From Trichormus sp. ATA11-4-KO1 (GTDB lineage: Bacteria; Cyanobacteriota; Cyanobacteriia; Cyanobacteriales; Nostocaceae): a stretch of 64,000 nt of DNA. Shown piece after piece: positions 29,521 through 44,970 of this stretch. The stretch is from assembly GCA_019358915.1 (NCBI GenBank), contig JAHHIM010000001.1:32001-96000 (forward strand), read 5' to 3'. Both the position numbers and the translations under genes were made by a program. The notes under the pieces were generated by a model, which had not been told where the DNA came from, ran no database searches, and saw nothing but the letters and a program-made list of their open reading frames with translations. Position 1 is the stretch's first letter, and the number at the start of each line of letters is the position of its first letter.

Positions 29521-30678
29521 ATGAGTCTTAAAATTCCTTTTGTAGACCTTAATTTACAACATCAGCCAATTCAACATCAATTACAACAGGCAATCCAGTC
29601 TGTATTGGACCAGGGAGATTTTATTTTAGGGAAAGCACTGGCAAAGTTTGAAACAGCTTTTGCAGCAGCATCTGGCGCAGAATATGGTGTAGGTGTTGCA
29701 TCAGGAACCGATGCGATCGCCCTCGGTTTGCAAGCGTGTAATATTGGTGCTGGAGATGAGGTAATTTTACCAGCTAATACCTTTGTGGCTACGTTGATTG
29801 GAGTTTTACGGGCTGGAGCCAAACCCATTCTCGTGGACTGCGATCCCCAAACCGCTTTAATTGACTTGGAAGCAGCAGCAAAAGTGATTACGCCATCAAC
29901 CAAGGCAATTATTCCCGTACATCTTTATGGTCAAATGGTATCCCCAAGGCAGCTATTAGACTTGGCTGATACTTACAAACTACTAATTTTTGAAGATGCA
30001 GCACAAGCACATTTAGCCGAAAGAGAAGGATATCGCGCAGGTTCTGTGGGGACAGCAGCAGCTTTTAGTTTCTATCCCAGCAAAAATTTGGGAGCATTTG
30101 GGGATGGGGGAATGCTGGTGACACAAGATGAGGATGTAGCCCAAAAGATGGAGCGCTTGCGAAATTATGGTGCATCTCAAAAATACTTTCATGTGGAATC
30201 AGGGACGAATAGTCGCTTAGATACTCTGCAAGCAGCAGTGTTGCTAGAAAAACTACCACATTTACCCCAGTGGAATCGCGATCGCTTAAAGATTGCTCAA
30301 CAGTATGATCTGGAACTAGCACCATTAGCCTCTGCGGGAATTATCCCCATGCAAAATCAAAGTGGTACAGGACACGTGTATCACCTATATGTGATCAAAA
30401 TTGATGATACTTGTGCCCTAGAACGCCAGCAAATCCAGGATAAACTGTCAGCATCGGGAATTCAAACTGGTATTCACTACCCAATTCCCTGCCATTTGCA
30501 ACCAGCATTCACCAACTTAGGCTATCAACTGGGAGACTTTCCCCAAGCAGAACAGCTAGCAAAGCAAATATTATCGTTACCCATGTACCCTGGTTTGAGC
30601 CATAGCCAAATTCAACAAGTTGTTACCGCGATCGCCTCAGCTCTCAGTGGTGAACAACAACAGTTATTGTGCATTTAA
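29521..30678 (+). CDS. DegT/DnrJ/EryC1/StrS sugar aminotransferase
   Basis: SGTDA, EDAAQA, SFYPSKNLGAFGDGG, NSRLD, HLYV. Confidence 0.95.
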   Translation: MSLKIPFVDLNLQHQPIQHQLQQAIQSVLDQGDFILGKALAKFETAFAAASGAEYGVGVASGTDAIALGLQACNIGAGDEVILPANTFVATLIGVLRAGAKPILVDCDPQTALIDLEAAAKVITPSTKAIIPVHLYGQMVSPRQLLDLADTYKLLIFEDAAQAHLAEREGYRAGSVGTAAAFSFYPSKNLGAFGDGGMLVTQDEDVAQKMERLRNYGASQKYFHVESGTNSRLDTLQAAVLLEKLPHLPQWNRDRLKIAQQYDLELAPLASAGIIPMQNQSGTGHVYHLYVIKIDDTCALERQQIQDKLSASGIQTGIHYPIPCHLQPAFTNLGYQLGDFPQAEQLAKQILSLPMYPGLSHSQIQQVVTAIASALSGEQQQLLCI

Positions 30679-30761
30679 TTTACAGTATTTAAGTAGACAA
30701 ATAACTAACATCGGTTCATGGAAACACTTTGTAAATTATCAATGGGAAATTATTTAAAATC

Positions 30762-31661
30762 ATGGCACTTCAGCAACAGATTAAACACAGAAACTCAGTA
30801 CAATTACTCAGCGTAGGGATTTTTGGTATTTTAGTACTGCTTTATGCTCCTGTGTTATTACATTGGTTAGATGGTTGGCTTAACAAAAGCATCAGTATAG
30901 AACACGAATATTTTAGTCACGGTATTATTGGTCTACCATTTGCCGCTTACCTCATTTGGATGAATCGGAAAAAGTGGCGACGTCTGCAAGATACAGCCCA
31001 TCCTTTGGGTGCTGTTTTGCTTGTAACAGGGGGAATACTTTATCTTAGCGGTATTCCAGAGTGGGTCAATGTGTCCTTTCCCGCTATCTTGGCAGGGTTG
31101 TGCTTGTGGTTTAAGGGCATAGCAGGCTTCCGATTACAAGCATTTCCTCTGCTATTAATATTTTTAGCAACTCCAACAGCAATACCTTACCTCCTCGTTC
31201 CCTACACCTTGCCTCTGCAAAGCTTCATTGCAGGTACAGCAGGCTTTATCCTCAATCAAGTGGGGATGGAAGTAATTGTTGATGAGATAAACATATACGT
31301 AGGTGGCAAGATTGTGGAAGTTGCACCCTATTGTGCAGGGCTAAAAATGTTATTTACCACTCTTTATGTCAGCTTAATGCTGCTTTATTGGACAGGTGCA
31401 TTATCCTCACGCCGCACTACCACTTGGTTTTTATCTTGTGCGATCTTTATTAGCATTACTGCCAATATTATTCGTAACACTTTACTCAGCTTCTTTCATG
31501 GCACAGGACGCGAGGCAGCTTTTAAATGGCTGCATGACAGTTGGGGCGGCGACCTCTACTCTGCTTGTATGCTGCTGTTATTAATTCCTTTGCTGAATTG
31601 GATGAATGATTATTTTTCCACAGATGTAGAACCTCAGCAACAAGGAGAAACCCAAAGTTAA
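30762..31661 (+). CDS. crtB: Cyanoexosortase B
   Basis: EYFSHG, VAPYCAGL (catalytic Cys), NIIR, H; multi-TM exosortase layout (not phytoene synthase). Confidence 0.88.
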   Translation: MALQQQIKHRNSVQLLSVGIFGILVLLYAPVLLHWLDGWLNKSISIEHEYFSHGIIGLPFAAYLIWMNRKKWRRLQDTAHPLGAVLLVTGGILYLSGIPEWVNVSFPAILAGLCLWFKGIAGFRLQAFPLLLIFLATPTAIPYLLVPYTLPLQSFIAGTAGFILNQVGMEVIVDEINIYVGGKIVEVAPYCAGLKMLFTTLYVSLMLLYWTGALSSRRTTTWFLSCAIFISITANIIRNTLLSFFHGTGREAAFKWLHDSWGGDLYSACMLLLLIPLLNWMNDYFSTDVEPQQQGETQS

Positions 31662-31858
31662 AAAGTATGCAGAATAGTGGAGAGATAGTGAAAAAGCAAA
31701 GAGGAAAGACTCGCAAACACTTCCCCTTTACTCACCATTTTTAAATACATTTCCCCTGAGTTTCTAATCTGATACTCAGGGGAAGAAATGTAAAATTTAC
31801 TGAACTTACGTGTCATTTTTTCAAGTAGAATTTTGCGTAAATACAGCAATTTTTACTA

Positions 31859-32593
31859 ATGATTTCCTTATCTAAATTTTTCAAAGAAAAGCAATTGGCT
31901 CATGCTGTAGTGCTTTTGTTGTTACTACTGCTATTGCTAATAGGAGGCGTTCCTGGATATATAACAGGACGTTGGCAATGGAAACAGCCGCCACCTGTGG
32001 CCAGCCTCCAGGAATTGCGGGAAATACGTAAAACAGGGTTAAATCTTCCTGATTGGCAAACTGTTGAACAAGCTGAACAACAGATTGGCACAGGTAAATG
32101 GTCATTGCAGATTCTCAAGAACGAAAAATTGCAATCTCAAGCAATATTGCTTTTGCATCCGCAAAATGGCCCGATGGATCAACCAGAGGTAGAGTGGACT
32201 GATATTAACGGCTGGGGAAGGTCTCGTTGGGGAAAATGGGATATAGCTCAATCTCGATCTGCCCAATTTACCGTCAAACGACCCCTAAAGTCAGGGTCAA
32301 ATACTGAAGCTAAGGTAGAAGCTAGATTCTTTCGTGTCTCCACCCCACAGGAAACCTTCGCTATCTTGCAATGGTATGCTACACCAAATGGTGGACATCC
32401 ATCGCCTTTACGCTGGTTCCTAGCAGATCAATTGGCACAATGGCATAAAAAACGTGTTCCTTGGGTTAGTGTAAGCATAATGATTCCCATGGAACCTTTA
32501 GGCCAGGTGGAAACTACTTGGACTGTAGCACAGTCTATTGGTGAAACAGTACAAGCTACCTTGATGGCAGGTCCTTTGGAGAAAAGTCCATGA
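31859..32593 (+). CDS. Cyanoexosortase B system-associated protein
   Basis: N-terminal TM, PGY..G.W.W, QWYA; immediately after the exosortase. Confidence 0.8.
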   Translation: MISLSKFFKEKQLAHAVVLLLLLLLLLIGGVPGYITGRWQWKQPPPVASLQELREIRKTGLNLPDWQTVEQAEQQIGTGKWSLQILKNEKLQSQAILLLHPQNGPMDQPEVEWTDINGWGRSRWGKWDIAQSRSAQFTVKRPLKSGSNTEAKVEARFFRVSTPQETFAILQWYATPNGGHPSPLRWFLADQLAQWHKKRVPWVSVSIMIPMEPLGQVETTWTVAQSIGETVQATLMAGPLEKSP

Positions 32594-32789
32594 GTGTGTC
32601 GGTTTTTACATAAATGTGGCAACTATCCCGACTTGTGAATCTACCCTCAAGATTAAAAGTTAGTTAAAGTATGAAATCCACAGTTAAAAGTGTCACCATA
32701 CAAGGAGATATTTAAAATACTTACAGAGTAAAATAACCACTTAGTGGGACTCATTTTGAATTCAGCTTTACCATGATTCCAGTTTTCAT

Positions 32790-34136
32790 ATGCGTGCATC
32801 ATTTAATGCCCTGTGCTTGGTTAGTTATCAGATAGGCCTTTTGTTCACAACCCCTGGACAAAGTGTTGTTGCTCAACCTTTACCATCTCCAGGGCAGCCG
32901 TCAGGCACTGTTGAAGTGCAACCACTGTTGCAACCCCCTGCGCCACCCCCAGGTAATGAGGGATTCAATAACGAAATTTCTCCCCAAATCGACCGTTATC
33001 TCCTAGGACCAGGAGATGTAATTAACGTTGTGTTTCAGCGCCCTCCTGGCCCCTATCGCTTAGGACCAGGAGATACAATTAGCGTTTCAGTTCAGCGCTT
33101 TCCAGATTTAAGTTTTCAAGCTGCAATTAACCCAGAAGGCAACATTATAGTGCCACTTCTCGGCACAGTATCCTTGCAAGGTTTGAGTTTGGAAGAAGCA
33201 CAAGAAAAAATTCGGTCGTTGCTCAATCGTTTTGTAATTGACCCCATCGTAGTTTTATCTTTAACTGGGCAACGTCCAGATTCGAGTTTTCAAGCCCAAA
33301 TTAATCCAGAAGGCAATATTGTAGTCCCGCAAGTGGGAACAGTGTCCTTACAAGGCTTGAGTTTGGAAGAAGCACAAGAAAAAATTCGTTTGAGTTTAAG
33401 TCGCATTTTGGTTGACCCGATGTTGGTCGTTTCACTGACATCACCACGGCCAGTTCAAGTGACCATTAGCGGTGAAGTATTTCGACCAGGAATTTACCCT
33501 GTAACTTCTTCAACAGCTCGTGTGGCTGAAGCTTTGTTCACAGCTGGTGGTTCTACGATGGCCGCAGACCTACGACAAGTACAAGTACGCCGCAGGTTGA
33601 TTGATGGTTCTGTGATTTCACAAACTGTCGATTTGTATGCAGTATTGCAGAATGACGGATCTCTGCCTAGCTTACGCTTACAAGATGGGGATGCAATAGT
33701 TGTACCGCGCCGGGAAATTGGTAATGATGACGGTTACGATCGCAACTTAGTAGCTCGCTCATCCTTGGCTGTACCGCAAATTCGCGTCCGGGTTTTAAAC
33801 TACTCTGCATCCGGAATTGTGACTCAAGCGCTGCCTAATGGTAGTAATTTTGTTGATGTTTTAGCGGGAATCAATCTGGATAGAGCTAACCTCCGGGACA
33901 TTGCCTTAGTACGCTTCGACCCTGAACAAGGTAAAGCTGTTACCCAAAAACTGGATGCGAACAAAGCTCTTTCCGGCGATGCGTCTCAAAATGTGCCACT
34001 TCAAGATAATGATGTAATTGTTGTTGGTCGGAATTTGATTAGTAGAATTACTAATTTTTTGAGTACTATTACTCAGCCTTTTTTCAATATTCGGACTTTC
34101 CTCAATTTCTTTGAAAACTTTGGCGGCTCTAGGTAG
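32790..34136 (+). CDS. wza: Polysaccharide export protein (Wza/SLBB)
   Basis: YxLGPGD, INPEGNI, GEVFRPG, SLBB-like LQDGD repeats. Confidence 0.88.
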   Translation: MRASFNALCLVSYQIGLLFTTPGQSVVAQPLPSPGQPSGTVEVQPLLQPPAPPPGNEGFNNEISPQIDRYLLGPGDVINVVFQRPPGPYRLGPGDTISVSVQRFPDLSFQAAINPEGNIIVPLLGTVSLQGLSLEEAQEKIRSLLNRFVIDPIVVLSLTGQRPDSSFQAQINPEGNIVVPQVGTVSLQGLSLEEAQEKIRLSLSRILVDPMLVVSLTSPRPVQVTISGEVFRPGIYPVTSSTARVAEALFTAGGSTMAADLRQVQVRRRLIDGSVISQTVDLYAVLQNDGSLPSLRLQDGDAIVVPRREIGNDDGYDRNLVARSSLAVPQIRVRVLNYSASGIVTQALPNGSNFVDVLAGINLDRANLRDIALVRFDPEQGKAVTQKLDANKALSGDASQNVPLQDNDVIVVGRNLISRITNFLSTITQPFFNIRTFLNFFENFGGSR

Positions 34137-34282
34137 GTTTGCCAACCTTTGTGGCTGATAGCAATAGACATAGAAAATGGCGCAATGGAGTGACTAATAA
34201 CACATGAATGATCAATAATGATTAATAACTCAAAACTATTGAAGATTGACTAAGTTCAAACCTATTCTTATATGCCTCTGCC

Positions 34283-36433
34283 ATGACTCCACCAATTGTC
34301 AAGCGCTATATTATTGCTTTTGAAAAATACAAATGGATTGGATTAGCCAGCTTCGCTTTAGTTGTAGCGGGTTCAACAGTGGTGGCTATACAGCCAGAAC
34401 CACCACCCAGCTACATAGCAGACGGCGCACTTACCTACACTCGTCCACCAGTTTCGTTCTCAGCAACTGGTAGTGAAATTCAGCAACAAGGACAGGAACT
34501 AACTCAACAAGTTTTGCTATCAGACCAGATTGTCGAAACTGTAGCAACGAAGGTTAATGTTAAACCAGCAACGATTGGGACAAATGTTGCCTTGCGTCTA
34601 CCGAATAGAAGCAATCCCGCAGAAGCTCAATCGACAATCATTGAGTTGAAATATAAAGATACTGACCCTCAGCGTGCTCAAGAGGTATTGCAGGAATTAA
34701 TGCAAGCCATGATCAATCTGAGCGGTGATATTAATACTGAGCGATTAAAAGCAATTATTCAAAAAATTAATGAGCGTTTACCGCAGGCTAAGTCAGAACT
34801 TGAAGGAGCAGAGCAGAAGCTAGAACAGTATGATCGCCGAGAGCGTCCGGCAATATTGGCAGCAGAAAATGGTAGTTTATTGGGCGCAGTCACTAACAGC
34901 CAAAATCAGCAACGGTTAATCCAACTAACTATTGCGGGAATTGATGCCCAAATTCGCAGTTTACAAGAAAAGTTGGGTTTAAATGTTGGCCAAGCTTATG
35001 TTTCTTCGGCTTTGAGTGCCGATCCCATTCTGGCCAACTTGCGATCGCAAATTTACCAAGCTGAATCTCAAATCACTTTACTTAGTAAAGATTTACGACC
35101 TGAACACCCAACAATGATTCAGTTGCAGCGTCAGAAACAATCAATTGAAGAATTACTGCAACAACGGGCGACTGAGGTAGTAGGGGGTGGTGGTACAGCA
35201 GCGCCTTTACCTGGGAATATTTCTGGTATTCGCGAGCGAAGCAGCTTAGATCCAGCTAGGCAACAACTAGCAAACCAGATGGTAGGTTTGGAAACCCAAA
35301 GAGAGACATTAGAACAACAATTAGCTCAACAAATTAGAGAAGAAGAGCGATTACGACAGGAGTATTCCCAAATACCTAATAAGCAACTAGAGCGATCGCG
35401 CTTGGAACAAGAGGTGGGACTCAAAAAAGCTGTTTTTGACCAAATGCAGGCGAAGTTAACTGATGCCAGAACCGCAGAAGCTGAAACAATCAGTAGCTTA
35501 ACAGTTGCCAGAATCCCCAACGTGGTGACCGATGCCAAACAAGCTAGAAGTGTACCTCTCACCTTGGGTGTTGGTGGTTTCTTGGGATTGTTGGTTGGCG
35601 GTGGGGTCGTATTTTTATTGGGGTCTTTGGAAGGAACCTTCAAAACCAAGGAAGACATCCGCGACAGCTTCAGGCAAAGGGAAACTGCCCTGTTGGGAGA
35701 ATTGCCTTTAATGCCTGTAGATGATTTAGATAAAGCAGCCGTACCTGTAATCCTTTCCCCAGATTCTCCTTATTTGGAGTTTTATGAAAAGTTTCGCAGT
35801 AATTTGCGCCGCATTGGTGGTAAAAACTTGAAGGTGCTGTTGATTACTAGCACTAGCAGTCAAGAAGGTAAGACGGTGAGTGCTTATAACTTGGGTATAG
35901 CATCCGCCCGTGCAGGTAAACGAACCTTGATTATCGAAACAGATTTGCGATCGCCTTCCCGCGCTGCATCCCTGAACGTAACTCCCGATAACGAAGCCAC
36001 TATTGAACCCCTGCGCTATTATGCCAGGCTGAGTGAGTGCGTCCGGATGGTTCCTGATGTAGAAAATCTCTATATTATTCCCAGCCCTGGCCCTGTGCGT
36101 CAATCTGCTGCTGTGATTGAATCAAGTGAAATGCAACGGCTGATGAAGGATGTCCGGGAACGTTTTGATTTAGTGATTTTAGATACTAATCCCCTCAGCT
36201 TATCTAATGATCCTTTGTTAATCCAACCTTATAGCGATGGCATAGTATTAGTCGCGCGGCCAAACTATACACAAGAAAATATGTTGGGAGAAGCTATTGA
36301 TCAATTAGTTGAGTATGAACTAGGTTTGTTGGGAGGCATTATCAACGGTGCTGATATTCTTGTTTCATCCCCTCAGCCAATGGAAGAATCAGAAATGGTA
36401 GAAGAAGTTTCAGCTAGTGCCAGCAACAACTAA
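34283..36433 (+). CDS. wzc: Polysaccharide co-polymerase / Wzc-like tyrosine kinase
   Basis: Two TMs flanking a coiled coil (HP motif), Walker A TSTSSQEGKT, ETDLR, VILDT. Confidence 0.88.
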   Translation: MTPPIVKRYIIAFEKYKWIGLASFALVVAGSTVVAIQPEPPPSYIADGALTYTRPPVSFSATGSEIQQQGQELTQQVLLSDQIVETVATKVNVKPATIGTNVALRLPNRSNPAEAQSTIIELKYKDTDPQRAQEVLQELMQAMINLSGDINTERLKAIIQKINERLPQAKSELEGAEQKLEQYDRRERPAILAAENGSLLGAVTNSQNQQRLIQLTIAGIDAQIRSLQEKLGLNVGQAYVSSALSADPILANLRSQIYQAESQITLLSKDLRPEHPTMIQLQRQKQSIEELLQQRATEVVGGGGTAAPLPGNISGIRERSSLDPARQQLANQMVGLETQRETLEQQLAQQIREEERLRQEYSQIPNKQLERSRLEQEVGLKKAVFDQMQAKLTDARTAEAETISSLTVARIPNVVTDAKQARSVPLTLGVGGFLGLLVGGGVVFLLGSLEGTFKTKEDIRDSFRQRETALLGELPLMPVDDLDKAAVPVILSPDSPYLEFYEKFRSNLRRIGGKNLKVLLITSTSSQEGKTVSAYNLGIASARAGKRTLIIETDLRSPSRAASLNVTPDNEATIEPLRYYARLSECVRMVPDVENLYIIPSPGPVRQSAAVIESSEMQRLMKDVRERFDLVILDTNPLSLSNDPLLIQPYSDGIVLVARPNYTQENMLGEAIDQLVEYELGLLGGIINGADILVSSPQPMEESEMVEEVSASASNN

Positions 36434-38918: not shown

Positions 38919-39485
38919 AAATGCACCCTAATAAACTGGATAGTTGCAGTTTTGATCAGAAGCACAAATCAGCGTAACCGTATTTTTGCGGGATTTATGA
39001 AGACGGTCAATTGAAGCGTCAGCGCATTTGCGGAAAGCTTTACCAAGCGATCGCCTACATTCTTTGACCAATTGCTACACTGAAAAAAATTTGCGCCAGT
39101 GTTGCATTGATTCTGGAGTATTCCACTGAGTTGAGAATAAATGATAATTAACCTAATTTTTACTTAGAGATTTGCCTAGCAATCTGATTTGATTCCTCAA
39201 TCATTGGCACAGAGTGGGAACAGAGATTCAATGTGTACTGAGTGTTTTTCAAACATCAAATAGGATTTTTATATTTATAATTTTGGTTGAGCTAACAAAA
39301 CCTAGCCTTTGGTAATCAATGCTGTAAAATTTGCCCAAAGAAGATGTGTGACAGGCTACAAAAAACAGGCTTTTAGTTAAGGTTAAGACAGCGAAATAGA
39401 CGATTTTCTAGTTAATTTTTGTTAATATTGGAGACGGTGTTAGTACTTCGTCCTTAACTACCCATTCCTTACTGAGAGAAACTTG

Positions 39486-41180
39486 ATGCTGCGACTCGAA
39501 CATATCAGTAAAATTTATCCCACAGGCGAGGTTCTCAAAGATATCAATTGGGAAGTCAAACCAGGCGATCGCATTGGCTTAGTCGGTGTCAACGGTGCAG
39601 GAAAATCTACTCAGCTAAAAATTATCACTGGGGAAATTGAACCCACCGCCGGCGAAATCATTCGTCCCGCCAGCTTACACATAGCCTACCTCAACCAAGA
39701 GTTTGAAGTAGATCCCAGCCGCACGGTTAAAGAAGAATTTTGGACGGTTTTTGCCGAAGCCAATCAAGTCCAAATTTCTCTAGCCCAGGTACAGCGAGAG
39801 ATGGAAACGGCGACACCAGAGGAACTGGATCAACTGATTAACAAATTGGATCGCTTACAACGTCAATTTGAAGCCTTAGATGGTTATGGCTTAGACGCAC
39901 GGATTGGGAAAATTTTACCGGAGATGGGGTTTGATTTTGAAGATGGCGATCGCCTCGTCAGTGCTTTCTCCGGCGGTTGGCAAATGCGGATGAGTTTGGG
40001 GAAAATCCTCCTGCAAAAACCCGATTTATTGCTACTGGACGAACCGACTAACCACTTGGACTTAGAAACCATTGAGTGGCTGGAAAATTACCTCAAAGGT
40101 TTGACTACACCCATGGTCATCGTCTCCCATGACCGGGAGTTTCTGGATCGCCTTTGCACCCACATTGTAGAAACTGAACGTGGTGTTTCTACCACCTACC
40201 TAGGTAACTACTCGGCGTACCTGCAACAAAAAGCCGAAAATCAATTAGCACAACTAAGTGCCTACGAACGTCAGCAGAAAGAAATCGAGAAACAGCAAAC
40301 ATTTGTTGACAGATTTCGTGCTAGTGCGACTCGCAGCACCCAAGCGAAAAGCCGGGAAAAACAACTAGAAAAAGTTGAGCGCATTGAAGCACCCATTGCT
40401 GGGGTCAAAACTCTGCATTTTCGCTTTCCCCCCGCACCTCGTAGTGGTCGGGAAGTAGTGGAGATTAAAGATTTAACTCATATCTATGATGATAAAATCT
40501 TATTCTTGGGAACCAGTCTCTTGATTGAAAGAGGCGATCGCGTTGCTTTTCTTGGTCCCAACGGTGCAGGTAAATCCACGCTGTTACGCGTAATTATGGG
40601 TATGGAACCACCTACAGAAGGTAGTGTGAAATTAGGCGATCATAATGTGATCCCCGGTTATTTTGAACAAAACCAAGCCGAAGCTCTGGACTTAAAGAAA
40701 ACTGTCATGGAAACTATTCATGATGAAGTTCCCGACTGGAAAAACGAAGAAGTCCGCACACTTTTAGGACGGTTTTTATTCACTGGCGATATGGTATTTA
40801 AGCAAGTTGGCGCATTAAGTGGGGGAGAAAAGGCGCGTTTAGCATTGGCAAAAATGCTGTTACGTCCAGCAAATCTCCTGATTTTAGATGAACCGACAAA
40901 TCACCTAGATATTCCCGCTAAAGAAATGCTGGAAGAGTCTCTACAAAACTACGATGGCACGGCAATTGTCGTTTCCCACGACCGTTATTTTATTTCCCAG
41001 GTTGCTAACAAAATCGTAGAAATCCGCGATGGGGAATTTCGGGTTTATTTGGGAGACTATCATTATTACCTAGACAAAGTAGCTGAAGAAAAAGCACAAG
41101 CCAGACAAGCAGCGATCGCGGCGGAAAAAGCTGCCAAGAAAGCTACCAAAGCGGCGAAATCTTCGGGTAAGAAAAAATGA
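39486..41180 (+). CDS. ABC-F family ATPase
   Basis: Two NBDs (GVNGAGKST/FSGG, GPNGAGKST/LSGG, LDEPTNHLD) and no TM domain. Confidence 0.95.
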   Translation: MLRLEHISKIYPTGEVLKDINWEVKPGDRIGLVGVNGAGKSTQLKIITGEIEPTAGEIIRPASLHIAYLNQEFEVDPSRTVKEEFWTVFAEANQVQISLAQVQREMETATPEELDQLINKLDRLQRQFEALDGYGLDARIGKILPEMGFDFEDGDRLVSAFSGGWQMRMSLGKILLQKPDLLLLDEPTNHLDLETIEWLENYLKGLTTPMVIVSHDREFLDRLCTHIVETERGVSTTYLGNYSAYLQQKAENQLAQLSAYERQQKEIEKQQTFVDRFRASATRSTQAKSREKQLEKVERIEAPIAGVKTLHFRFPPAPRSGREVVEIKDLTHIYDDKILFLGTSLLIERGDRVAFLGPNGAGKSTLLRVIMGMEPPTEGSVKLGDHNVIPGYFEQNQAEALDLKKTVMETIHDEVPDWKNEEVRTLLGRFLFTGDMVFKQVGALSGGEKARLALAKMLLRPANLLILDEPTNHLDIPAKEMLEESLQNYDGTAIVVSHDRYFISQVANKIVEIRDGEFRVYLGDYHYYLDKVAEEKAQARQAAIAAEKAAKKATKAAKSSGKKK

Positions 41181-41335
41181 TTTGTGAATATTCCCTGTTC
41201 CCTGTTCCTTTATTACCCACGCGCGAGAACCGAGAAACCCGGTTTCTTTAGCCACGCTGCAAACGGCGAGAGAAGAAGGAAAAAAAGAAAAAGTGCAGAG
41301 GGCTAAAAGGCAAGAGTGCAAAGGGCAGGGAATCC

Positions 41336-43069
41336 TCACGCCACAACTGCGACAACACGAAAACCAACATAGTAGGGAGAATTCGCGCACGCGTACTTAA
41401 CGCGAAAGGGAGAACGGCAATACCTAGCACCGTTGACCCAACTACCACCACGCAGCACATTTATGTTCTTTTCTTTACCGTTTAGCCACGCACTACCATC
41501 TGTCGGCGCGCCTTGGTAATTTTCGTTATAAACATCTTGACACCATTGCCATACATTTCCGTGGATATCGTATAATCCGAAAGAGTTCGGCGGAAATTTT
41601 CCTACATCTGTCGTCTGTTGACGATATTCACCTTTAGGTGCAGAACCATAGGGAAAGTTGCCATCATAGTTAACTAAATCTGTGTTTATAGTTTCCCCAA
41701 AATAAAACGGCGTATTTGTCCCCGCACGACAAGCATATTCCCATTCTGCCTCGCTAGGTAGTCTGTAGGTTTTTCCTGTCTTCTGACTCAATTTCTCACA
41801 AAACTCTACTGCATCATCCCAACTCACTTGTTCTACAGGTCGTCTATTACCTTTGAAATGAGCCGGATTTGTCCCCATAACTGCTTGCCATTGTTCTTGG
41901 ATGACTGCATACCTACCCATGAAGAAGCCGGGAACTCTCACCTGACGCTGGGGACTTTCATTATCAAATCGTCCCGCTTCTTCTTCTGGTGAACCCATTG
42001 TAAATGTTCCCCCTGGTATCTGCACCATTTCCAAGGTGACTCCATTTCCTAAGTCTTCTACAAAATATTTCGCTTCCCTGTTCTGACGCTTGATGATTTG
42101 ACCTTGTGCATTTACCTTTACTGTTTCAAATTGAAAGGTTTGCAAATAAGTTGAGAAAAAAGTAGATGGAGTAACGGGATTTAATATTGTTGGTACTATC
42201 GGTGGTTTTAGTATGGTTGGTGGTATTTGTGGTTGCTGTTGTGGCTGTATCGCTGTAATTGCTTGCAACGCCTCCACTGCGGAAGGGTATCTATCCCGAA
42301 AGTCATAACTCACCATCTTATTTAACACAAGAGCCAACTTTTCCGTCACATTTGCCCTGTTACGCCAAATTACCTCATCGTTTTTGGGGTCTGTTGGTAG
42401 TTCGTGGGGTTGTAATCCTGTTAATGCTTGAATTGCTAACATCCCCACTGCATATACATCACTGGATAATTTTGGTCTTCCTATTGCTTGTTCACTAGGC
42501 ATATAACCAAGACTGCCAATGGCTACACTCAGACTTGTTTGACCTTGGCTATTCACCGTCATGGCTTCAACTTCTTTGACTGCACCAAAGTCAATCAGAA
42601 CTATCTTACCGTCTTGCCGACGACGCATGATATTTTGGGGCTTGATGTCGCGGTGAATAATATTATTTTTGTGGACTACTGCTAATACTTTTAATATTTC
42701 TTGTAATAGTTTGATGACTGCTATTTCTGTTAACTTTTCACCGGGAACGATTTCATAGCTTAAGTCTTCCCCATCTACAAATTCTTGGACTAGATAAAAT
42801 TGTCCCTGTTCTTCAAAGTGGGCGAATAGTCGCGGTATTTGGTCGCTATCGTTGCCTAATTTGTATAATACTTGCGCTTCGCTGTCAAATAATCTTCTAA
42901 CTATTTCTAATACTTTGGGGTCTGGGTTGGGTTTGAGGTGTTTGACTACACGCAGGGGTTTATCTGGTAAATCTAGGTCTTGCGCTAGATATGTGTCTCC
43001 AAATCCCCCACTTCCCAGGATTTTGATGATTTTATAGTGGCTGCGGAGGATTGTACCAGTCGTAGGCAT
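41336..43069 (-). CDS. Ser/Thr protein kinase with C-terminal FGE-sulfatase (CLec-fold) domain
   Basis: GSGGFG, HRDIKPQN, DFG; then IPGGTFTMGS, RLPSEAEWEYACRAG, GLYDIHGNVW, RGGSW...GFRV. Confidence 0.95.
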   Translation of the reverse strand: MPTTGTILRSHYKIIKILGSGGFGDTYLAQDLDLPDKPLRVVKHLKPNPDPKVLEIVRRLFDSEAQVLYKLGNDSDQIPRLFAHFEEQGQFYLVQEFVDGEDLSYEIVPGEKLTEIAVIKLLQEILKVLAVVHKNNIIHRDIKPQNIMRRRQDGKIVLIDFGAVKEVEAMTVNSQGQTSLSVAIGSLGYMPSEQAIGRPKLSSDVYAVGMLAIQALTGLQPHELPTDPKNDEVIWRNRANVTEKLALVLNKMVSYDFRDRYPSAVEALQAITAIQPQQQPQIPPTILKPPIVPTILNPVTPSTFFSTYLQTFQFETVKVNAQGQIIKRQNREAKYFVEDLGNGVTLEMVQIPGGTFTMGSPEEEAGRFDNESPQRQVRVPGFFMGRYAVIQEQWQAVMGTNPAHFKGNRRPVEQVSWDDAVEFCEKLSQKTGKTYRLPSEAEWEYACRAGTNTPFYFGETINTDLVNYDGNFPYGSAPKGEYRQQTTDVGKFPPNSFGLYDIHGNVWQWCQDVYNENYQGAPTDGSAWLNGKEKNINVLRGGSWVNGARYCRSPFRVKYACANSPYYVGFRVVAVVA

Positions 43070-43371
43070 GATTTTTGACTTGGCAATGGGGAATTTAGCT
43101 TTATTCTGCCAAATTTTTTAGTCGTACAGCAAGTGTTTTTACTTATGTAAGTAAGTTGCTAATAAAAAATTCAATATAGGATTACTATTTGATTTTTTTT
43201 GGCGTAGCCTGCGCTTTGTGCTTACGGACACGTAGGGGAGGCTGTTTGCTGTGTGGATGTTCCTCCCGCAAAACTGCCGTTTAAAATAAGTTAATAAGCA
43301 GAAATTCACTTGCACTGGTGATTAGCAGTGGTATCATTCGGTTATTACAAAAAGTAAAGGGCAATTTTACT

Positions 43372-44970
43372 ATGACCAAAGCACCTGTTGCTCCTGTGGT
43401 GCTAGTCATTTTAGACGGGTGGGGCTATTGCGAGGAGACGCGAGGAAACGCTATTGTCGCTGCTAAAACTCCAATCATGGAAAGCTTATGGACAGCTTAC
43501 CCACACACCCTCATTAGCACATCAGGAAAAGCCGTAGGGTTGCCAGAGGGTCAGATGGGCAACTCGGAAGTTGGTCATTTGAACATTGGCGCAGGGCGAG
43601 TAGTACCCCAAGAATTGGTACGCATCTCAGATGCGGTCGAAGATAATTCGATCCTCAGCAACCCAGCACTTGTCAAAATTTGCCAAAAAGTTCACTCTCA
43701 AAATGGCAAGCTGCATTTAGTTGGGCTTTGTTCTGAGGGAGGGGTACACTCCCACATTACACATCTATTCGGACTACTTGATTTAGCCAAGGAACAGCAA
43801 ATTTCCCAAGTTTGTATCCACGCCATCACCGATGGTCGTGATACAGCACCTTCGGAAGGTATAAAAGCAATTCAGCTCTTGCAGGATTACATAGATAGTA
43901 CAGGGATTGGGCGCATAGTTACCCTCAGTGGTCGTTACTACGCAATGGATCGCGATCACCGTTGGGATCGGGTAAAAAAAGCCTACGACGTGATGACACA
44001 AAATGGCGCGGGTGACGGTCGTAATGCTGTTGAAGTCCTGGAAGCATCTTATGCTGAAGGTGTGAAGGACGAGTTTGTGATTCCAGTCCGAATTGCCCCC
44101 GGTGCGATAGAACCAGGGGATGGGGTGATATTCTTCAACTTCCGCCCTGATCGCGCCAGACAGTTGACTCAAGCTTTTATGAGTCCCGAATTTACAGGGT
44201 TTGAAAGACAACAAATTCAGCCTCTGTCCTTTGCTACTTTTACTCAATACGATCCAGACCTACCAGTAGCCGTAGCTTTTGAGCCGCAGAATCTGAGTAA
44301 TATTTTGGGTGAAGTAATTGCCAATAATGGTTTGAAACAGTTTCGCACCGCCGAAACAGAAAAATACGCCCATGTCACCTATTTCTTTAATGGGGGACTA
44401 GAGGAACCTTTTGCTGGGGAAGACCGAGAACTTGTTAGCAGTCCCATGGTAGCGACTTACGACAAGGCCCCGGCAATGTCAGCAGAAGCAGTCACAAATG
44501 TAGCGATCGCCGCGATTCAAAAAGGTCTCTACTCGTTAGTGGTGATTAATTATGCCAATCCAGACATGGTAGGGCATACTGGTAAAATAGAAGCCACAAT
44601 TACGGGTATTGAAACAGTTGATGATTGTTTAGGTCGTCTACTCGCCAGCATTAGCAAAGCTGGAGGCACGGCAATTATTACTGCCGACCACGGGAACGCA
44701 GAGTATATGCTAGATGATGAAGGTAATCCCTGGACAGCTCACACCACCAACCCAGTCCCGTTGATTCTAGTTGAGGGAGAAAAAGTAAAAATCCCCGGAT
44801 ATGGCGCCAATGTCGAACTGCGAAGCGATGGCAAGTTAGCTGATATTGCCCCCACAATTCTGGAAATTTTACAGTTACCCCAACCATCAGAAATGACTGG
44901 GCGATCGCTCCTAAAACCAGCAGAATATGATGTGCAACGCACACGCACTCCCGTGCAAGCTGGTATGTAA
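43372..44970 (+). CDS. gpmI: 2,3-bisphosphoglycerate-independent phosphoglycerate mutase
   Basis: ILDGWG, GQMGNSEVGH, GRYYAMDRD, NPDMVGHTG, TADHGNAE. Confidence 0.98.
   Translation: MTKAPVAPVVLVILDGWGYCEETRGNAIVAAKTPIMESLWTAYPHTLISTSGKAVGLPEGQMGNSEVGHLNIGAGRVVPQELVRISDAVEDNSILSNPALVKICQKVHSQNGKLHLVGLCSEGGVHSHITHLFGLLDLAKEQQISQVCIHAITDGRDTAPSEGIKAIQLLQDYIDSTGIGRIVTLSGRYYAMDRDHRWDRVKKAYDVMTQNGAGDGRNAVEVLEASYAEGVKDEFVIPVRIAPGAIEPGDGVIFFNFRPDRARQLTQAFMSPEFTGFERQQIQPLSFATFTQYDPDLPVAVAFEPQNLSNILGEVIANNGLKQFRTAETEKYAHVTYFFNGGLEEPFAGEDRELVSSPMVATYDKAPAMSAEAVTNVAIAAIQKGLYSLVVINYANPDMVGHTGKIEATITGIETVDDCLGRLLASISKAGGTAIITADHGNAEYMLDDEGNPWTAHTTNPVPLILVEGEKVKIPGYGANVELRSDGKLADIAPTILEILQLPQPSEMTGRSLLKPAEYDVQRTRTPVQAGM

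Follow-up and report, generated by a model that had tools for sequence, protein, structure and literature searches.

The gene under study, at 41336..43069 on the minus strand of the window, i.e. the whole stretch of 64,000 nucleotides that was analysed, is an intact ORF of 577 aa encoding a Ser/Thr kinase-CLec (FGE-fold) protein of the DGR-type target class (Pfam PF00069 and PF03781). The window lies on contig C1 of G000, the genome assembly of the window's own strain. The protein kinase domain (aa 12-261, 42287..43036, minus strand; Pkinase Pfam match) contains the Hanks-type motifs GSGGFG, VVK, HRDIKPQN and DFG, all of which were found by a motif check at aa 19, 41-43, 139 and 160, respectively, and which we take to be the Gly loop, the catalytic Lys, HRDxKxxN and DFG of an enzyme with predicted kinase activity. 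Among the loci compared, this domain is nearest to the canonical DGR target of G004 (86% at the amino acid level), with 85% to the remote target G403d. The FGE-sulfatase-like/CLec ligand-binding domain (aa 347-573, 41351..42031, minus strand; Pfam PF03781) shares 74-80% of its amino acids with the CLec domains of most compared targets from the RT-less cassettes described below, and the PDB entries related to it by sequence comprise, among others, PvdO (5hha) and the variable protein of a Treponema DGR (2y3c), the latter matched at E 4e-27. A role as catalytic PvdO was considered and rejected, the PvdO model giving 170 bits against a curated cut-off of 500. The protein stands alone in its 90% cluster and the best identity in a metagenome scan was 62% among the matches listed. 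No transmembrane segment was predicted by a hydropathy scan, where the highest 19-residue value (1.58) falls within the kinase fold, so that the term receptor kinase used in the original prediction is unsupported; as read from the sequence, the product is predicted to be cytoplasmic and combines a Ser/Thr kinase with a lectin-fold domain.

On one side, the gene is flanked by an ABC-F-type ATPase gene (39483..41180, plus strand; two ABC_tran stretches and ABC_tran_Xtn) and, on the other, by gpmI for the BPG-independent phosphoglycerate mutase (43372..44970, plus strand; iPGM_N and Metalloenzyme), which is 98.6% identical to that of the congeneric genome G001. Elsewhere in the window, a gene run at 29521-36433 resembles, by its translations, a cyanobacterial exosortase and polysaccharide export locus.

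The variable region and its templates in other Nostocaceae

The 24 codons between RGGSW and GFRV were located at 41437..41366 (minus strand), exactly as earlier listed, and their peculiar composition was correctly described in the original prediction, since A is never the last base of the 24 codons, 20 of which have C or T there; in the remainder of the gene, 39% of the codons end in A and 44% in C or T. The A-free run extends over 37 codons and is the longest of the gene. In the long ORFs of G000, A-free stretches of 24 codons amount to 1,089 out of 1,239,563 (0.09%), 304 of which also have at least 20 pyrimidine endings, and the chance of 24 A-free codons given the amino acids and the genome codon usage is 0.0025. 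Regarding the paralogous FGE genes, whose comparison had been proposed as a check, G000 has five FGE-domain genes in total; three served as codon controls, the one on contig C7 being inspected only. In these three paralogs, 4-5 codons of the corresponding stretch end in A and a pyrimidine tail is lacking, and they differ from their own best template repeat (TR) at 22-23 of 66 non-A sites. Some A-bias is also seen in these controls (p 0.006-0.02), because binding-loop positions vary anyway.

The variable region (VR; 41336..41458, minus strand) aligns over 123 nt with the TRs of other members of the family, with a hypervariable core at 41366-41437. By plain blastn of 60 relatives, AAC-rich non-coding copies of the VR were recovered, the best of which, in G004, leaves the VR core changed at 14 of 24 adenines vs. 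11 of 72 other sites (p 9e-5). A degenerate TR motif is present in 33 of 389 family genomes, G000 included, with no match for the reversed control; compared with the best TRs, the 96-nt core is changed at 14/25 adenines vs. 7/71 other positions (Fisher p ~8e-6), bearing in mind that templates retrieved with the motif give too low a non-A figure because the motif was built from the VR, the G004 figure being unbiased. All the A-site changes fall at codon positions 1 and 2, one polymorphic column excepted. Relative to the TRs of other species, mismatches at A make up 67%, which is below the >80% used for cognate pairs (PMC7517822).

Immediately downstream lie the 3' invariant stretch and an IMH-like motif across the stop codon (41329..41365, minus strand), where targets read TGAGGA and templates TGAGTA; we infer the IMH role from the position. 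A pyrimidine-rich tail of ~70 nt, common to the family targets in the cassette alignment, follows at 41266..41335 (minus strand). Together with the adenine-biased mismatches to the templates of other Nostocaceae, the conservation of the downstream motif and of the pyrimidine tail bears out the claim that the VR of the kinase-CLec protein is DGR-derived; as judged from these alignments, the 3' end of the gene is a genuine DGR variable region. The case shows that a VR-like codon pattern can be recognised for what it is in the bare sequence.

The similarity to the family cassettes stops at ~41266, the point at which a short GC hairpin is present in the family; it was predicted in two family members and not in the window copy. 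What comes next is a single-copy spacer (41181..41265), with no other genome copy at E<=1e-3, at the place where cassettes carry the hairpin, promoter-like sequence, TR and spacer RNA; no promoter-like stretch, TR or spacer was found 300-330 bp downstream of the window VR. In scans for promoters and terminators, no signal exceeded that of shuffled sequences. Regarding the homing elements, the window copy thus keeps the target-type motif and the tail, its 3' stretch is altered and the GC hairpin was not recovered. Over the full VR, the window copy differs from the TRs of G403 and G189 at 13-14 A sites (14 for the G403 TR), at 12 non-A sites and by a gap of 3 nt, and the last 33 aligned columns hold 4 of these non-A changes as well as the gap. 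Two of the 12 non-A mismatches fall on A in single TR variants, so that some would be spurious if the true cognate TR is an unsampled variant; besides, cognate VR/TR pairs in other genomes show 0-16 non-A mismatches, which places the value of 12 within the range of side-by-side pairs. As a possible silent-site clock, four-fold sites differ at 3/12 in the VR vs. 17-23/50-55 upstream.

Machinery, insertion site and probable fate of the gene

The G000 assembly (5.97 Mb, 73 contigs) is 99.89% complete. As originally stated, no RT is encoded within the 64-kb window, the sole RVT_1 matches of the genome lying on contigs C28 and C67. Of these two genes, one scores above and one just below the TIGR04416 cut-off, and both were rejected as DGR RTs, their best matches being group II intron maturases. 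Three cyanobacterial DGR RTs from relatives, used as queries, matched in G000 only these two intron-like RTs above E 1e-3, with 22-33% identity, and DGR-clade RT matches at >=66% identity occur in 23 of 60 relatives (the query's own genome among the 23). Of note, the RT on C28 (L001, G000:C28:19153-22842) is a 480-aa ORF without N-terminus, of the group II intron-like type; a short upstream ORF resembling the missing part holds a repeat seen many times in the genome and this RT may be interrupted. For Avd, the best NF033474 score in G000 is 34.6 bits against a cut-off of 80, and the Avd of two relatives, which themselves score 142-145 bits on the model, retrieved nothing at E<=1 by tblastn; the weak matches to the model were dismissed as far under the cut-off and unmatched by real Avd queries. 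Searches of G000 for a TR by blastn, by an adenine-tolerant ungapped scan and with TR-plus-spacer queries returned only the VR itself, an extra match of one TR-plus-spacer query being an unrelated dispersed repeat from the flank of that query. The congeneric genome G001 has no DGR RT, no family TR and no VR.

The search for a TR beside an RT gene, by which trans diversification was to be checked, thus yielded neither TR nor DGR RT in the assembly. Of the pair of observations that were to count against the original prediction, the first half, i.e. a genome with no TR and no RT, is what the assembly presents. Trans diversification of the kinase-CLec gene, as originally proposed, does not stand at the assembly level: TR, RT and Avd are all absent from the assembly and the VR has drifted at non-adenine sites, the 3' invariant stretch included. 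From a VR-like codon pattern in a gene, the presence of an active DGR cannot be deduced. In contigs of run X1, which may be the source of the window DNA and are not independent, the stretch is in one piece at a depth of ~1,044 with no other letters, and there is no cover over the promoter, TR or spacer of the G189 cassette; these results were not counted as evidence, as rare variants are lost from contigs and a gap in the cover is no proof of absence.

The configuration that had been proposed, namely a remote kinase target without an adjoining TR, the TR and RT being at other loci, is to be found in the relative G403, by sequence comparison, and not in G000. G403 has three TR-less targets, two of the kinase-CLec type and one with a weak vWA-like match, and their VRs differ from a caspase-fused TR at 13-15 adenines and at 0, 1 and 2 other sites of 126 nt. 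A coding gene end, here that of the caspase-CLec gene, may thus serve as TR, because it is the best template for all three remote targets. At L209 (G403:C1:5582500-5587500), as at L211 (G398), a caspase-CLec gene has the unmutated template in frame as its 3' end, and the spacer RNA sequence comes next. The full RT of G403 is at a separate fifth locus with a different TR, which shows 21-22/68 non-A mismatches to the remote VRs of this genome.

The kinase-CLec gene is an insertion, since ABC-F and gpmI are adjacent and the site empty in 5/5 relatives examined and since a soil contig of run X3 joins window position 41208 to 43282; the upstream part of the insertion spans 43070..43281, the homology to the empty site resuming at ~43282. 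Over its first 900 nt, the ABC-F gene is 97.3% identical to that of G001, then 89% and 78.5% over the last 800 nt, and the values per 100 nt drop from 93-100% to 90-71%. In the last ~195 nt, G001, G029 and G016 are 87-89% alike and G000 is 77-79% from all three; it is therefore G000 that holds a foreign ABC-F end, and the 3' part at 40400..41180 (plus strand), delimited by the identity drop relative to G001, is a putative recombination tract. An intergenic inverted repeat common to G001, G029 and G016 is absent at the window site. No donor of the ABC-F end was found among 388 family genomes at E<=1e-165 (two candidates scored in each). No long terminal repeats were found at the insertion, so that nothing there points to an IS or transposon, and the flanks are essentially single-copy. 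The simplest reading of these identities would be homologous recombination from an unsampled donor, by which the ABC-F 3' end and the kinase gene came in together; if a remote target was imported in this way, its TR and RT would be left behind.

Taken together, the kinase-CLec VR, formed by the last ~40 codons of the gene, is likely a frozen variant acquired by horizontal recombination, with no template, RT or Avd in the assembly. The freezing is argued by the lack of machinery and by the 12 non-A mismatches and gap, to be compared with 0, 1 and 2 in the remote targets of G403. The VR descends from a Nostocaceae TR family via A-to-N changes at codon positions 1 and 2, as the alignments show, and mutagenic homing would have taken place in an ancestral or donor genome with TR and DGR RT at other loci, as in G403 today. 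The gene, which sits as an insertion between ABC-F and gpmI, would have entered the lineage along with ~0.8 kb of foreign ABC-F, TR and RT being left behind; homing would then have ceased, and ordinary mutations would have gathered in the VR and the 3' homing stretch with the ORF kept intact. By analogy with proposals for related proteins, the VR-encoded pocket would bind a single, fixed ligand, probably an antigen of non-self or stress origin, thereby switching the kinase on or steering it to a substrate.

It is rather unlikely that the gene is a live remote target whose cognate TR and RT exist in the species but escaped assembly, disappeared during cultivation or are brought in at times by a plasmid. 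Such a situation would resemble that of G403, where three TR-less targets match the caspase-fused TR at almost all non-A sites, and the ORF, downstream motif and tail of the window copy are intact. Plasmid-borne cyanobacterial DGR RTs do exist, with 6 records at 65-96% identity among 11 matches, and a plasmid-borne DGR could be missing because the assembly is in 73 contigs and completeness counts marker genes; phage-borne RT donors were discarded, with only 2 distant matches at 37-38% identity. The Trichodesmium DGR RT is reported to be inactivated in culture and intact in a wild scaffold (PMC4143802). Against a live target, G000 has no trace of TR, RT or Avd and G001 neither RT nor family TR, the 3' stretch is altered by 4 changes and a gap of 3 nt, and the hairpin of the family has disappeared. 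A visiting canonical DGR like those of G403 and G189 would not fit either, because the RT-linked TRs of G403 and G189 differ from the window VR at 21-23 of ~68 non-A sites.

Even less probable is that the kinase gene was never itself a target and that a CLec domain with an already diversified VR recombined onto a kinase. Domain shuffling of this kind would be in line with the fusion of the same CLec/VR family to caspase, kinase and vWA-like N-termini, as well as with the best kinase match, in G004 (86%), having a TR of another family and a CLec domain with lower similarity (72%). However, G403d is of the same architecture and is 85% identical in the kinase and 78% in the CLec domain; its VR belongs to the same family and fits a template almost perfectly, and G187, G189 and G181 carry kinase versions with a TR attached, so that the kinase-CLec fusion is a real target type; moreover, the end state, i.e. 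a frozen VR, would be the same. As for the codon pattern being that of an ordinary FGE-fold domain, produced by chance or by amino-acid bias, with A-free stretches at 0.09% such patterns do arise by chance, but this reading has next to no probability left and was already ruled out by the template match, the VR core agreeing with non-coding AAC-rich templates of other genera at 64/71 non-A sites and the target-specific tail coming directly after the VR.

A family of template cassettes without RT

Besides the probably frozen variant at the window locus, the templates lead to a family of RT-less cassettes (L057-L086, L095-L121 and L204-L216 of the family genomes) combining target and template. 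A Pepco gene often comes first in them, and then the caspase- or kinase-CLec target, the VR, the tail, a short GC hairpin, a promoter-like stretch, the TR and a spacer, with a VR-to-TR distance of 301-327 bp. The window VR belongs to the TR family of these cassettes, of which the window copy is kept only up to the hairpin. The family exhibits the CLec/VR module fused to caspase, kinase and vWA-like N-termini. Neither RT nor Avd was found near the cassettes at any of 27 loci within up to 8 kb (several loci being truncated by a contig boundary). The TR motif matches 32 genomes besides G000, of which 30 were considered for the RT count, G004 and G016, which both have a DGR RT, being left out: 5 have a near full-length DGR RT, 2 a fragment and 23 none. 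In genus g81 (127 genomes), 24 genomes have an RT match and at least 29 have the full promoter-TR-spacer unit among the matches listed; an RT match occurs in 7 of these at least 29 unit carriers vs. 17/98 other g81 genomes.

Near adenine-only VR/TR pairs are nonetheless present in RT-less assemblies, namely (A/non-A mismatches) G304 14/0, G307 10/0, G292 17/1 and G187 15/1, together with decayed pairs in G207 (14/16) and G302 (16/12). In the 16 of 20 loci with a usable pair (105/120 pairwise comparisons, the kin not being independent; 15/16 from genomes without RT match and most assemblies draft), divergence reaches 25% at the four-fold sites of the target, 3% at TR adenines, 4% at other TR sites, ~10% in spacer and promoter and 66% at the VR adenine positions. 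This pattern fits templates that would be under selection and an RT that would turn over faster than the cassette.

Several configurations of these elements were observed in addition. At L062 (G182), L068 (G221) and L215 (G217), a diversified VR is joined directly to a template-type end and spacer, and about two dozen further joins of this kind are suggested by match ranges; such joins would be the expected outcome of recombination between VR and TR with loss of the intervening promoter. A lone TR with spacer, with no adjoining target gene or RT, lies at L045/L058 (G004:C38:16619-16750), and the RT cassette of G004, on C16, uses a TR different from this one on C38. At L049/L057 (G016:C2), the VR of a close kinase-CLec homolog is interrupted by a stop codon, a dead end of the kind that adenine mutagenesis can produce.

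No published description of RT-less template cassettes as a family was found by title and start of abstract, the scope being papers outside subscription. The available text on RT-less cases comprises a sentence on all3226 (PMC7517822) and the incomplete Thiohalocapsa loci (PMC10907252), to which supplements may add. The survey of PMC7517822 would miss such cassettes in RT-less genomes because its starting point is the RT, from which 5 kb are inspected in each direction. This conserved RT-less template family is a more interesting lead than the window copy. Tentatively, and with the balance leaning against it, the Nostocaceae DGR could be split into independently inherited parts, namely targets, selected RT-less template cassettes and an RT/Avd module that comes and goes, e.g. 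plasmid-borne, allowing hit-and-run diversification and the trading of finished variants by recombination without the machinery. If this reading is true, the output of DGRs would reach genomes without any DGR, and if an intermittent RT maintains the templates, the prevalence of DGRs in filamentous cyanobacteria is under-counted.

Comparison with known DGR systems

The kinase-CLec protein is the commonest cyanobacterial DGR target, with 76 remote targets reported and targets mostly predicted to be cytosolic; the CLec pocket is considered to bind a ligand and to regulate or direct the kinase (PMC7517822). Non-adjacent targets, 73 of them, are also reported (PMC5758913), as is high TR-RNA expression with hypermutation for Nostoc punctiforme (PMC12691664). 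The window gene resembles the cyanobacterial remote variable proteins in its Ser/Thr kinase-CLec architecture, its 3' VR and its locus away from an RT; in contrast, the genomes of that survey were chosen by their DGR RT (PMC7517822), and the G000 assembly has no DGR RT, Avd or TR and a flank with a putative recombination tract. For PCC 7120, all3226 was described with 'remnant TR-VR homology' and no nearby RT, and removal of the machinery after a variant has been selected is a suggestion of Vallota-Eastman et al. 2020 (PMC7517822). With the canonical cyanobacterial cassette (target - avd - RT - TR - spacer; L052, L055 and L087), the window gene shares the CLec fold, the RGGSW...GFRV frame and the tail type, whereas only the target is present in the window and its TR family is beside an RT in 0/27 loci.

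Among systems with decayed or incomplete loci, Trichodesmium erythraeum IMS101 has 12 mostly kinase-fused targets, five VRs with non-adenine mutations and four judged to be no longer targets (Pfreundt et al. 2014, PMC4143802). Its non-targeted VRs, in mostly kinase-fused DUF323/FGE proteins, have non-A mutations also in the 3' conserved stretch with the protein intact, as does the window gene, but Trichodesmium retains a TR and a pseudogenised RT (PMC4143802), neither of which is in the G000 assembly. In Thiohalocapsa PB-PSB1, Dore et al. 2024 (PMC10907252) report incomplete DGR loci, trans activity and one invariant target, DGR 1, and CLec targets, kinase fusions included, are there proposed as antigen sensors. 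Thiohalocapsa PB-PSB1 and the window gene are alike in having CLec targets at loci lacking components; the Thiohalocapsa trans targets match a TR of their own genome at all non-adenine sites and have demonstrated metagenomic diversity (PMC10907252), neither of which applies to the window gene. On its own, the window gene matters little, the claim of live trans diversification failing at the assembly level: frozen and remote kinase-CLec targets are already published, and the gene is one more such protein with a DGR scar.
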